Origin: a virus
Virus genome (UHGV): UHGV-0363594
DNA length: 7,651 nucleotides
Reading direction: 5' to 3' (one strand)
Position 1 is the stretch's first letter, and each line of letters begins with the position of its first letter. The notes beneath the pieces are model-generated. The model was given only the letters and a program-made list of their open reading frames with translations, was not told where the DNA came from and did not search any database. This document shows positions 168-7,199 of this stretch, one piece after another. The position numbers and the translations under genes are program-made.

Positions 168-550
168 TTGCTGCGCGTGATTAACAATTTATCGGCTTTA
201 CTGTTCTGTATAGGCTGGGTGGCGTCATGCCGTAGCCGTTCTCCGTGCCAGCATGGAATAATCCGTAGTTACAGAGCGGTAAAGTTAAAAATCACTTTCT
301 GTTACGCCATCAAATACGCGATACAACAACCATGTGTTTTTACAAAACCATTTGATATCATTGAATTTTTTCACATTAATGACATCAAAATACATCGTAA
401 GGTTGTTGTATTTATTTTATTTTTACCTTACTTATCAATTAGATATACCAAACAATTAAACAACAACCACCCCCTCAAAAAATCTCATAAATAGCGAAAA
501 ACCGCGAGGTCGCCGCCCCGTAACGGGTCCATATGCCGGAAAGGACCCGT

Positions 551-2615: not shown

Positions 2616-2642
2616 AGTAAGAAATTCCTCTTTGACTTAAAA

Positions 2643-2699
2643 AATCATAACTGGATGTTCATCCAGTTATGATTATAATCATGATTGCATTTTGTGCAA
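2643..2699 (-). promoter_or_regulatory. Candidate sigma70 promoter of the capsid operon with an overlapping 32-bp palindromic operator
   Basis: On the minus strand: -35 TTGCAC (plus 2694-2699), 16-nt spacer, -10 TATAAT (plus 2672-2677). The palindrome AATCATAACTGGAT-GTTC-ATCCAGTTATGATT (2643-2674, 14-bp perfect arms) spans the -10 and the predicted transcription start. A second small inverted repeat TTGCA-TTTTG-TGCAA (2686-2700) overlaps the -35. Confidence 0.5.
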
Positions 2700-2780
2700 T
2701 GATATTGAGTTGCGTTGCAAATTATGAAATGATTATCCCGATCATGTGTGTCAGTGCACCAAAAAAAACCTCATATGCAA

Positions 2781-2819
2781 AAGCCCGATAAGCCCCCTCT
2801 GACCTTATCGGGCTTTTTT
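2781..2819 (+). terminator. Intrinsic terminator-like hairpin with T-run, strongest on the plus strand (possibly bidirectional)
   Basis: Stem GCCCGATAAG (2783-2792) / CTTATCGGGC (2804-2813), 11-nt loop, followed by TTTTTT (2814-2819). Four A precede the stem, so a weak minus-strand terminator is also possible. No protein-coding gene on the plus strand ends upstream of it. Confidence 0.5.
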
Positions 2820-2994
2820 ATCTGCCTGCAAAGATGTCGAACAAAAATTAACCACAATCATCATCTTTTTTGCATCAAAATAATTAAAAACAATCACTTA
2901 CGCACATGATGATGATGACGATAAAATCAAAAAAATGCGCTTCTTTCCGCGCCTCCCGCCCCGTGTTCAGGCCCACCCCGCCAGGAGGACCCGT

Positions 2995-3016
2995 AAAAAA
3001 GCCGGATTGCTCCGGC
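2995..3016 (-). terminator. Rho-independent terminator after ssb (minus strand)
   Basis: Hairpin GCCGGA-gcaa-TCCGGC (plus 3001-3016) followed on the minus strand by 6 T (plus A-run 2995-3000), 17 bp downstream of the ssb stop. Nearly identical to the terminator at 551-574. Confidence 0.75.
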
Positions 3017-3032
3017 TTCTGTCACTCGTTGC

Positions 3033-3455
3033 TTAAAACGGTATGTTATCCCCGTACGGATCATCGTTACCCGCCTGTTGTTTTGCCCTGTTCAGTGCGT
3101 CAGTAGCCTGGCCCTGCTGGCCTTTTTTACCACCTGGTCGCGCCGTTCTGGCACTGATTACGCTGTCAGCGATAACCTGCCACCCCTGCCGCGTTTCTCC
3201 GTTCTGCCCAGTCCACTGGCTGATCTGCATGTTACCCGCCACGCTCAGGAGTTCACCCTTGCGGTGCCTTTCCAGTGCTTCGGCCTGTCTGCCAAATGCG
3301 ATGACCGATAGCCATAACGTCGCCTGCCCATCCTGCGCCTGACTACATGGCAACGATACCGCCATACGTGCCAGCGTCATTGGTGTGCCCTTGCTGGTCT
3401 GTTTTACCTGCGGGTCGTCCACCAGCCGCCCGTAAGCTGCTATCTGTGCTGTCAT
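3033..3455 (-). CDS. ssb: Single-stranded DNA-binding protein (SSB), 140 aa
   Basis: The N-terminal two-thirds has an OB-fold SSB pattern (GRLVDDPQV...; W..VIAFGRQAE.....KG). A Gly/Gln-rich linker is followed by an acidic tail ending DDPYGDNIPF, matching the canonical SSB C-terminus (...DDDIPF). Strong SD GGAGAGGTGG. Confidence 0.9.
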   Translation of the reverse strand: MTAQIAAYGRLVDDPQVKQTSKGTPMTLARMAVSLPCSQAQDGQATLWLSVIAFGRQAEALERHRKGELLSVAGNMQISQWTGQNGETRQGWQVIADSVISARTARPGGKKGQQGQATDALNRAKQQAGNDDPYGDNIPF

Positions 3456-3730: not shown

Positions 3731-3775
3731 TTTTATTTTTACCCTCGTGTTTAAAAAGTTTTAGGTTGTGGTGCA

Positions 3776-4004
3776 CCTCCTCTACCTCTCTACCTAATCA
3801 TCTTTCATGTCAGTAATGGCGCGGCTTTCAGATGGGTAGAGGGCTTTCGTGGCCCTCTACCCATCCTCTACCCGCCCCTCACAAACGATCTTAATCATGG
3901 TAGAAGAGGTAGAGAGGTTTTATTAGCCTTCTACCTAGCCCTCTACCCACTTATCATGTTGAATAATATGCGTTTATTTCATTCAGGTAGATGGGGTAGA
4001 GGGC
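3776..4004. repeat. Iteron array, putative origin of replication: at least 10 copies of the core GGTAGAG / CTCTACC in both orientations, flanked by AT-rich stretches
   Basis: Copies at about 3779-3786, 3787-3794, 3834-3844, 3852-3862, 3864-3873, 3899-3909, 3908-3917, 3927-3936, 3938-3948, 3986-3994 and 3994-4004. Includes a perfect inverted pair GGGTAGAGGGC-tttcgtg-GCCCTCTACCC (3834-3862). AT-rich tracts at 3751-3765, 3955-3984 and 4005-4025. No plausible ORF. Lies directly 3' of the primase/helicase gene. Confidence 0.6.
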
Positions 4005-4016
4005 TTTTACAAAAAA

Positions 4017-5771
4017 TTATAAAAACGCGTCACAATCATCAGTTGTAATTGCGTTGGTCTGCGTTACTCCCTTAACTCTCCGCGTAATATATTCATGTCC
4101 GTAAACTTTTGCCGCTGGCTTCATGGCCTTGCTGAACTCAGCCACGTTTAGCGGTTTGCTCCTGCCTGCGTATGCCATAAACGCCAGATAGACGCGGTAA
4201 AGGCTGTTTCTGGTCGTGTACTTCACTGAATCGCCACCGCCGCCCATCATCAGGCCGCGTGCTTCCTCCAGAAAATTCAGGAACTGGCAAAACTCAATAA
4301 CCGGATCCGTCTGTTGCTTTATTGCCAGAGCTTCATCACCGTCGCGCTGTTCCAGTAATAAAGCCCGTGCCTTTTCAGGGTCGGCAAAATTAGCCAGCAA
4401 GCGACGGATAATTACGGGGATTTCAGCCGCGACCTTCTCCGGCAAATCCTTGTCTTTTTCGTCCTCCCTTACAATGTTGTCGAACCGGAAAATCACCCGA
4501 CGGCGTGACACACCTCCGGCCCGCTCGGTGAATATCATCGGGTTATTGTTGGTAGCCAGCACCACCGCCCTGATTACCGCCGTAAAACGCTTCTCATATT
4601 TCGGGTTTATTTCCACGGGGTCGCCGCCCGTGATTTTCTTGATGCCCGTTCCTTCGCCTGTATATTTCGGCTGGTCAGCCAGGACGATAAGACGACTCCC
4701 GACAACCTGCGCACGTCCACCAGCATCATCAAGTGAGGTCATTTCAGCGCTTACCGTGTTCTGTTTCCCTGCCAGAAGGCTGGCTATGTGCGTGAATGTA
4801 CTTTTACCGCTACCGCCCTCTCCGGTGGCCTCAATAAACATCTGCCAGTCGTACCGGTTCGCCATAATCATGTACAGCGCGGCACATATACGCATCATCT
4901 TGCGCGGGTCTTTTCCGGCTGCGTGCTCAAGCCATTTATGAAAGTTTGGCGCGTTGTCGCAGATATTCTCCCCTGGTGCTGGTGGCGTGTACTCAATGCC
5001 GTTGTGCGTGGTGATCCAGTTCTCCGGCGTGTGCGGGGAAAATTCCCCCGTTTTCAGGTCAAGCGCACCATTGGCGAACGGCAACAAATCGCCGGACGGC
5101 TCGCCCATTGGTTCGGCAATAACTTTTAACGCTTCCACGGCGTTATTGATTACGCGCTTGCTGAAAGTGGCCCTGTGCTCTGAATAGATCGCCACCATTT
5201 CGCGGCTAAGTTCCATTGTGCTGACCGGACACCATACCCCGCCGCGCCATACGTGAACGATTTCACTTTCAGGATGTACGCAAACGCCATCAAAGCGATC
5301 GGCAAGCAGCTGCGCGCGCTCACTGTCCGCCATCTGCGAAAGTTGCGCCTTTTGCTTTACCGGAAGCTCAATGACCAGACCATCAGAAAGATTCTGGCGC
5401 TCACGGGCCAGATATTCGCGCCAGTTCTGCACCTCCTGGCCGTGCATACCATCAGGATAAAAATTTGCATCCTGTACGCCTGCCGCCGCCAGCTTCTGAC
5501 CAATCGCCTTTATCATTACAGGCGCAAGATATCCGGCCCTGTATATGCGTGCTGATTTTCGGCCTTCCGGCACAATTTGCAGATTATCCAGTTCGGATAG
5601 CTGCTGCTCCCCAAGCCACACAGGAGGCTCATTATCTCCGGCCATACGCGCATCATGTTCCTGCCATTGTTTCGCGTGTGCCCAGGCATCACTACCCGCA
5701 AAAATAATGACTTCTGTTCCTTTGTGTTTTATGCCGCGTGACTGCTGTTTTACGTTCGGTGCCAGTTTCAT
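4017..5771 (-). CDS. DNA primase/helicase (584 aa), phage/plasmid P4-alpha / D5-like type with SF3 helicase domain
   Basis: Walker-A P-loop GEGGSGKST in the C-terminal half, with downstream hydrophobic strand and acidic motif (LIVLADQP) typical of D5/P4-type primase-helicases. The N-terminal segment TEVIIFAGSD may be TOPRIM-like (tentative). Start overlaps the stop of the upstream ORF (ATGA). Confidence 0.85.
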   Translation of the reverse strand: MKLAPNVKQQSRGIKHKGTEVIIFAGSDAWAHAKQWQEHDARMAGDNEPPVWLGEQQLSELDNLQIVPEGRKSARIYRAGYLAPVMIKAIGQKLAAAGVQDANFYPDGMHGQEVQNWREYLARERQNLSDGLVIELPVKQKAQLSQMADSERAQLLADRFDGVCVHPESEIVHVWRGGVWCPVSTMELSREMVAIYSEHRATFSKRVINNAVEALKVIAEPMGEPSGDLLPFANGALDLKTGEFSPHTPENWITTHNGIEYTPPAPGENICDNAPNFHKWLEHAAGKDPRKMMRICAALYMIMANRYDWQMFIEATGEGGSGKSTFTHIASLLAGKQNTVSAEMTSLDDAGGRAQVVGSRLIVLADQPKYTGEGTGIKKITGGDPVEINPKYEKRFTAVIRAVVLATNNNPMIFTERAGGVSRRRVIFRFDNIVREDEKDKDLPEKVAAEIPVIIRRLLANFADPEKARALLLEQRDGDEALAIKQQTDPVIEFCQFLNFLEEARGLMMGGGGDSVKYTTRNSLYRVYLAFMAYAGRSKPLNVAEFSKAMKPAAKVYGHEYITRRVKGVTQTNAITTDDCDAFL

Positions 5772-6906: not shown

Positions 6907-6992
6907 GTGAAAGGCTCCCAGATGAATTTTAAGGAGTCTCGCTACTACGCTGTCAAACATGGTGGCGAGACGTAACAGGGTTGACAGACTGG

Positions 6993-7199
6993 TCATCTGG
7001 AAACCAGCGAGCACAAAGGCTCCCCCGTTACGCCCCGCCATAATGCGGGTATGGGTAGGTTTACGGACACAAAAAACCGCTTATCGGATGTGGGCGGCTG
7101 TCCGCCAGATGTATTCAGGCTGTCAAACCCGGTCGCCATGTGGGCGACGGGGGAAGCATACAGCCCCGTGATAATTTTTTGCAAGCGGTTTTTACGCAT
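6993..7199 (-). CDS. Hypothetical protein (68 aa with the start chosen here; the ORF extends to 7241)
   Basis: The start at 7199 (MRKNRLQ...) has an AGGGG SD-like element and overlaps Icd-like B by 8 bp. It occupies the same relative position as 6522..6743 in the duplicated unit but shows no obvious protein similarity to it. Confidence 0.4.
   Translation of the reverse strand: MRKNRLQKIITGLYASPVAHMATGFDSLNTSGGQPPTSDKRFFVSVNLPIPALWRGVTGEPLCSLVSR

Follow-up and report, generated by a model that had tools for sequence, protein, structure and literature searches.

Back-to-back, convergent or bidirectional intrinsic terminators occur between bacterial transcription units, and symmetric −10 elements or bidirectional promoters give divergent transcription. 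OOP, a 77-nt antisense RNA that overlaps the 3′ end of cII, is transcribed in a control region of phage lambda from a promoter of its own up to a strong terminator. The C4 RNA of P1 and the CI RNA of P4 (RF01695 in Rfam) are small RNAs of phage-related elements as well. Among phage-inducible chromosomal islands (PICIs), operon I of the staphylococcal SaPIs, a packaging operon, is under LexA control (Ubeda et al., 2007, as cited in PMC6092414). Two cos sites have been described in EcCICFT073, the model PICI of Gram-negative bacteria, and the authors who described this island found no phenotype for the genes c1498–c1501. In the PICI literature that we searched, we found no account of how the capsid-homolog operon of Gram-negative PICIs is regulated.

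The DNA analysed here is a virus genome of 7,651 nucleotides (UHGV-0363594), which in its whole length is referred to as the window. It is identical to a part of the tRNA-Pro-adjoining island of E. coli JNEC-KY203 (the exact-match genome) and colinear with EcCICFT073, and therefore the host element is a PICI of the EcCICFT073 family and not a P4-type satellite. The assignment is based on how the exact-match genome and CFT073 are annotated, and on Pfam matches, iterons, cos sites and the literature. PICIs of this type are marked by an integrase, an AlpA-type regulator, a primase with adjacent iteron origin, a cos site, capsid-homolog genes, a length of approximately 10–12 kb and a location next to a tRNA gene or conserved site, and the host element conforms to this description. 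The analogy to P4-type satellites, by which a preliminary description of the locus had made an RNA-based regulator plausible, thus does not hold. The C4/CI-type immunity RNA of the element and its targets lie at 6958–7161 on the minus strand, where a module resembling immI of P1 is located between Icd-like ORFs. It comprises a C4 antisense RNA (RF01695, 6958–7045, minus strand, 72.6 bits) and its a1/b1 target (RF03163, 46.8 bits), and this module is the real candidate for small-RNA immunity in the element.

All annotated genes of the exact-match genome are on the minus strand. In the direction of transcription, the C4-type RNA with its target sites is followed by small ORFs and a D5-type primase (4017–5771), an ori-like, iteron-rich region (3775–4009) and ssb (3033–3455; Pfam SSB, E = 3.9e-16, in agreement with the annotation), which is the last gene of the replication module. 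Downstream of the primase gene, the iteron region repeats GGGTAGAGG/CCTCTACCC about ten times, in either orientation, and is the expected PICI replication origin. After an intergenic gap of 417 bp (2616–3032), the capsid-homolog operon starts with a gene for a 68-aa protein homologous to c1498 (2409–2615) and continues with a major capsid homolog of the lambda gpE type (1354–2409), a decoration homolog of the gpD type (1007–1342) and a 137-aa gene homologous to c1501 (581–994), all on the minus strand. A minus-strand terminator (577–556) lies next to the lambda-type cos site. What was named capsid operon in the window is the c1498–c1501 group. The gap had been given as 415 bp in the preliminary description.

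Hairpin T1 and the boundary between two modules

The gap contains a hairpin, T1 (2780–2819, plus strand), which is predicted to be an intrinsic terminator facing rightward. Its 13-bp stem, 7 pairs of which are G-C, is formed by the arms AAAGCCCGATAAG (2780–2792) and CTTATCGGGCTTT (2804–2816), encloses an 11-nt loop (CCCCCTCTGAC, 2793–2803) and runs into six consecutive T residues (2814–2819). The preliminary description, which had reported a strong rightward hairpin with a T6 run at 2783–2819, is borne out in this respect. T1 thus combines the stable, GC-rich stem-loop and the U tract of intrinsic terminators, and the T tract comprises T6 in the window, T6–T7 in close variants and T6–T9 in other lineages. 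The hairpin is present in both the minimum-energy and the centroid fold of the intergenic region, with an energy of −17.8 kcal/mol as plus-strand RNA and −22.2 kcal/mol as minus-strand RNA. A consensus terminator scan missed T1 because the 11-nt loop exceeds the 8-nt limit of the scan. Perfect inverted repeats of at least 11 bp occurred with a mean of 0.03 per shuffled window, indicating that T1 is beyond chance. T1 is an element of an ordinary kind at a place without annotation: among 5,426 complete genomes of E. coli, 585 contain the control region with the hairpin, those of CFT073 and Nissle 1917 among them, yet neither has been annotated. No match to the control region with T1 was obtained among 50,697 phage records, and a phage origin of this segment was rejected accordingly. 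A function of the T1 loop as mimic of the ori iteron CCCTCTACC of the window, which it resembles, was also rejected, as the same loop occurs together with at least six other types of iterons.

Conservation of T1 was analysed at two levels. For the close set, 82 loci were collected from IMG/VR and from genomes of E. coli, which yielded 55 distinct sequences. Among these variants, the entropy was 0.02 and 0.00 in the two arms of T1 and 0.63 in the loop, and the arms varied even less than the beginning of the neighbouring coding sequence (0.05). A 33-nt block of the gap (2734–2766) had an entropy of 0.63, contained indels and was the most variable part of the gap. The distant set comprised loci with the same capsid module and 56–85% capsid identity that were reached by protein look-ups. 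A plus-facing hairpin with a T tract was located at the equivalent position in six of the seven lineages, namely in Salmonella, E. coli lineages 2 and 3, Edwardsiella, a Logan contig and the window group, while no clear equivalent was found at this position in Lelliottia. The stems of the distant loci (CCCGCCAG/CTGGCGGG, TCCCCCGG/CCGGGGGA, GGTCGGA/TCCGGCC, GCCCCCC/GGGGGGC and AGCCCA/TGGGCT) are unalignable, and MAFFT with RNAalifold failed to align the unrelated stems across lineages. The case for T1 is consequently one of conserved position and orientation and not of a covariation statistic. Structure is nevertheless kept while the sequence changes, with invariant arms around a variable loop in close relatives and unrelated stems at the same place in five further lineages.

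On its replication-module side, T1 is accompanied by a second terminator, T2 (2995–3018, minus strand; AGCCGGA-GCAA-TCCGGCT followed by T6), which faces in the opposite direction. In CFT073, O157 and most relatives, the two hairpins are immediate neighbours, with a distance within 6 nt in the islands of CFT073 and O157:H7, where T2 closes off the replication module behind perC or ssb. Homology of the window with these two islands extends from the 68-aa gene to exactly position 2819, the end of the T run of T1. In prophage Sp7 of strain Sakai, a capsid-forming PICI that occupies the same chromosomal site but carries another module, T2 is kept and T1 is absent; T1 thus travels with this capsid module. 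Published RNA-seq data of CFT073 are in line with a boundary at this point: c1498–c1501 changed together with temperature (log2FC 2.24, 2.05, 1.45 and 1.17), in contrast to c1495–c1497, for which no joint change was seen (log2FC 0.31, 0.36 and 0.24), indicating that the boundary separates two transcription units. The arrangement shares with known convergent terminator pairs the GC-rich hairpin, the U tract, the adjacent minus-facing T2, the A tract upstream of T1 and the location at a module boundary. It differs from them in that no annotated gene lies on the plus side, where the transcribed unit would be only about 80 nt long and would originate from the neighbouring promoter region.

In the window, T1 and T2 are separated by 176 bp of inserted DNA, which contains a second cos-type site on the minus strand (2830–2994). 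In minus-strand order, the insert consists of a cosQ-like element (ACGGGTCCT, 2994–2986), 24 nt, a cosN-like element (GGGCGGGAGGCG, 2961–2950) and an AT-rich stretch with repeats. The insert shows 86–88% identity to the Rz–terminase spacer of VT1-Sakai and Stx2 phages and aligns with the window's own lambda-type cos site (507–550, minus strand; cosQ at 550–542 and cosN, GGGCGGCGACCT, at 518–507), which together identify it as a cos-type site. Nissle 1917 contains the insert, and so do 17 of the 56 distinct T1-context sequences among the fetched loci; it is absent from CFT073 and O157. In all cases, it lies beyond T1 and thereby separates T1 from T2, but never T1 from the promoter region. Near-identical terminator hairpins precede both cos sites (577–556 and 3018–2995) and are a likely point of recombination. 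The presence of two types of cos sites could allow packaging by two classes of helper phages.

A predicted divergent control region and a putative short RNA

Between the 68-aa gene and T1, our map of the region contains two predicted divergent promoters, operator-like repeats and a LexA-type box, with the terminator pair dividing the capsid-homolog module from the replication genes. In a simple position-weight scan of 76,160 positions in the window, three of the six top-scoring promoter sites fell into this zone of 100 bp. The site ranked fourth, P-1 (2672–2699, minus strand), consists of TTGCAC (2699–2694), a 16-bp spacer and TATAAT (2677–2672), with a predicted start at about 2665. It recurs as TTGCAx-16-TA[T/A]AAT, as first or second of the minus-strand candidates in five lineages, and is the likely promoter of the capsid-homolog operon. 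On the plus strand, P+A ranked fifth (2705–2733; TTGAGT at 2705–2710, a 17-bp spacer and AATGAT at 2728–2733; start at about 2740) and P+B sixth (TGGATG-16-TATAAT with TATAAT at 2674–2679; start at about 2686). Equivalents of P+A are found at the same aligned position in Salmonella (TTGACT-17-AATGAT), in E. coli lineage 2 (TTGACT-17-AATTAT/AATCAT) and in Edwardsiella (TTGTTC-17-AATAAT), and in each of four lineages P+A was the top or second promoter match on the plus strand. Positions 2 and 6 of its −10 hexamer are invariant in close variants. The TATAAT of P+B, in contrast, is lost in other lineages (TATAAG in Salmonella, TTTAAT in E. coli lineage 2), from which it follows that the conserved unit extends from P+A to T1. 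The −35 elements of P-1 and P+A are only 5 bp apart, and this layout suggests two promoters arranged back to back. Systems with symmetric promoters are similar insofar as GATTATAATC is symmetric and reads TATAAT on both strands, so that promoter-like sites are present on both; they differ insofar as the plus-strand reading is unconserved here and P+A is a separate site, 50 bp away from the symmetric −10 element. P+A matches the consensus at 8 of 12 positions and lies within conserved repeats that may be protein-binding sites, and its conservation may for these reasons have another cause than promoter function.

The repeats in question are a direct pair of 19 nt, TTGCATTTTGTGCAATGAT (2685–2703) and TTGCAAATTATGAAATGAT (2715–2733), which are spaced 30 bp apart. 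They are conserved across lineages, cover the −35 element of P-1 as well as the spacer and −10 element of P+A, and look like an operator pair for an unnamed protein. A second operator-like element is the palindrome AACTGGATGTTCATCCAGTT (2649–2668; CTG-N10-CAG), which spans the predicted start of P-1 and resembles the LexA box of ruvAB. Its heterology index is 6.5, compared to 12.3 for the next-best site in the window, in a matrix rebuilt from operator sequences, in which the reference sites score 0.1–9.4. The box thereby unites the CTG-N10-CAG pattern, a low index and overlap with a promoter. It was kept in all 55 close variants and is present in Salmonella, Lelliottia and the Logan contig (index 4.2–6.9), whereas it is absent from three other lineages (index >15). 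An interpretation of the larger palindrome (2643–2674) as leader attenuator was rejected; changes in its outer arms are not compensated, CTG-N10-CAG is retained, and this pattern fits a protein operator better. The LexA-like box suggests SOS control of the capsid-homolog operon, as it operates for SaPI operon I, and in both cases a LexA-box-like sequence overlaps the promoter of a capsid- or packaging-type operon of a PICI. In contrast to the SaPI system, the putative site described here belongs to a Gram-negative PICI with an unrelated operon, is missing in three lineages and concerns the promoter next to T1 rather than T1 itself. In the PICI literature searched, the palindrome was not mentioned.

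A plus-facing terminator downstream of a conserved diverging promoter-like site, with no gene between them, is read most economically as the end of a short divergent transcript. From the layout of the locus, T1 most likely ends an unannotated RNA of about 80 nt that diverges from the promoter of the capsid-like operon. The putative RNA (2740–2819, plus strand; predicted only) would begin with a weak 5′ hairpin and continue through an A-rich linker and the conserved stretch CCTCATATGCAAAAG into the terminator. In CFT073 (NC_004431.1), it would be encoded on the minus strand of the record, between about 1385337 and about 1385259. A short plus-strand transcript ending at T1 had already been proposed, with a start near 2680–2720 and a length of 100–150 nt. 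By comparison of the lineages, such a transcript gains support from the conserved P+A site upstream of T1, which in turn moves the predicted start to about 2740 and shortens the RNA to about 80 nt; if the hexamer at 2674–2679 directed the start, the RNA would have about 134 nt. The predicted length is 65–80 nt in five lineages. Immediately before the terminator hairpin, CCTCATATGCAAAAG has an entropy of 0.16 in close variants, and alternative 5′ hairpins occur in variants of the predicted RNA.

In size, and as a self-contained unit of promoter and terminator next to regulatory DNA in a mobile element, the predicted unit is similar to lambda OOP. It differs from OOP by overlapping no known transcript, and no sequence similarity to OOP was found in the comparison with phage records. 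The T1 region likewise has no match to the C4/CI model (RF01695; none at 2600–2830 up to E = 10), and the true C4-type RNA is encoded 4 kb away. More generally, Rfam searches of T1, both for the window and for five other lineages, returned no real match. The known E. coli island sRNAs Esr41 and PasA–D represent neither the same locus nor the same sequence, and Sakai carries a different island at this site. Esr41, which maps to OI-43, and PasB, which in E2348/69 is flanked by tail genes of prophage PP6, were rejected as counterparts on this basis, and a literature search with the stem sequence retrieved only unrelated primers.

If the short RNA is real, it represents a new transcription unit in a satellite family that is used both as a model and as a chassis for engineering. 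If it is absent, the hairpin would still be a defined insulator that should be kept when such islands are re-engineered.

Insulation, regulation or remnant

Taking these observations together, we consider it rather probable that T1 is a functional plus-facing terminator that ends a short divergent transcript and, together with T2, insulates the replication and the capsid-homolog modules from each other. According to this model, P-1 would drive the capsid-homolog operon (c1498–c1501) on the minus strand, while P+A would fire in the opposite direction, with a transcript that runs for about 80 nt into T1 and stops there. Without T1, plus-strand transcription would continue antisense into ssb and the primase gene, in the window also across the cos site. 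T2 would stop transcription of the replication module from entering the capsid operon, so that T1 and T2 would jointly mark the module boundary. Insulation is the best-supported role of T1. The preliminary description had offered a bidirectional insulator as alternative, of which the insulating part is retained, but the effect would be mainly one-directional because the T tract on the minus side is short in most lineages. The A4 tract upstream of T1, which gives UUUU after the stem on the minus strand, and the greater stability of the hairpin as minus-strand RNA make some activity on this strand likely as well. Where bidirectional terminators have a U tract on both strands, the window has A4 upstream versus T6 downstream of the stem.

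This unevenness also bears on the question whether T1 could be a backup terminator of the minus strand that catches read-through past T2, with the plus-strand T run being incidental, which we regard as quite unlikely. T2 and T1 stand in tandem on the minus strand, and the UUUU tail, the higher stability on this strand and the uncoupled expression of the modules in the RNA-seq data all agree with such a role, by which the capsid-homolog operon would come to depend only on its own promoter. The first T run on the minus side, however, comprises 4, 4, 5, 2, 3, 3, 4 and 6 residues in the T1-bearing lineages and variants, which corresponds to a run of 2–4 in five of the seven groups of lineages, with one variant of the window lineage at five and only the Logan contig at six, whereas 6–9 consecutive T residues are found on the plus side in every T1-bearing lineage. 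T2 is already a canonical minus-strand terminator, so that T1 is not needed for this strand, and T2 alone was kept in Sakai Sp7, where the capsid module differs. The cos insert, moreover, uncouples T1 from T2 and leaves its connection to the promoter region intact.

The preliminary description had proposed a regulatory function of the RNA ended by T1. Such an RNA might pair with an mRNA of the PICI, a helper phage or the host, or control the capsid-operon promoter in cis. The conserved promoter-like site of its own, the strong terminator with at least six U residues, the succession of 5′ hairpin, A-rich linker and terminator hairpin, the low entropy of CCTCATATGCAAAAG and the maintenance of a length of 65–80 nt across lineages speak in favour of an sRNA. 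Within the gap, however, variability, including indels, is highest in the body of the predicted RNA, whose 5′ part falls into the block 2734–2766, and no seed or motif is common to all lineages. The duplex energies with the translation-initiation region of the adjacent operon, to which the complementarity test was confined, were no better than those of shuffled sequences (z from −1.35 to +1.33). The c1498 leader contains GUCA..GAGG, to which the T1 loop CCUCUGAC and, to a greater extent, the Salmonella loop are complementary, and CCUC is present in the loops of three lineages. Against a role of this motif speaks its absence from Edwardsiella and E. coli lineage 3, and an action of the loop as anti-Shine-Dalgarno sequence was rejected for this reason and because the duplex energies were no better than those of shuffles. 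With neither an Rfam match in any lineage nor identity with Esr41 or PasB, we consider a regulatory sRNA unlikely. It appears similarly doubtful that the EcCICFT073 family as a whole encodes an unnoticed RNA of about 80 nt, diverging from a capsid-homolog operon under SOS control and with an architecture, but not a sequence, that is kept in Escherichia, Salmonella and Edwardsiella, which would regulate the promoter switch or a transcript of the helper phage or the host.

The statement that no protein-coding gene lies upstream of T1 on the plus strand proved correct, since all genes are on the minus strand. The accompanying list of upstream frames was incomplete: the 20-codon ORF exists, but in the same frame an ATG opens 40 codons (2669–2791) that encode a hydrophobic peptide and end inside the T1 stem. 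Together with the usual role of divergent promoter pairs in phage switches, expression of a regulator gene, this frame could point to T1 as the relic terminator of a decayed plus-strand gene, for example for a divergent regulator or a toxic peptide. We judged the frame to be non-coding, and rejected it as type I toxin or other small protein, because it is stopped at codon 9 in CFT073, has lost its start codon in many variants and is shifted by changes in the length of an A run; its variable columns are distributed as 14, 15 and 16 over the codon positions, showing no bias. No lineage retains a gene at this place, and decay would not keep the arms of T1 invariant or let new hairpins arise at the same spot, which makes a relic highly improbable. 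Termination of a short divergent transcript with insulation of the two modules remains our preferred explanation for T1.

Further features of the island and its relatives

The 68-aa protein (phrog_3255) with which the capsid-homolog operon starts is conserved throughout the Enterobacteriaceae. Its predicted structure has a strand-helix-helix topology (mean pLDDT 74), and a fold search with the predicted model gave no significant match; the topology of the model hints at a DNA-binding protein of the ribbon-helix-helix type. At the other end of the operon, the 137-aa ORF (581–994) matches the C-terminal 75 residues of phrog_53, a family of head maturation proteases and scaffolds (E = 1.2e-10), and may be a scaffold-like remnant. 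In a Salmonella relative (L172), a hok/sok toxin-antitoxin locus (5301–5454) is located downstream of a Nu1-type gene, with a sok match to RF01794 of 109 bits and a Hok_Gef ORF. In E. coli UTAK-10 (L004), a related island occupies positions 4159–8083 inside a truncated gene for terminase gpA of a lambdoid prophage and contains the same Stx-type cos segment, a placement that resembles the published arrangement of PICIs embedded in helper phages.
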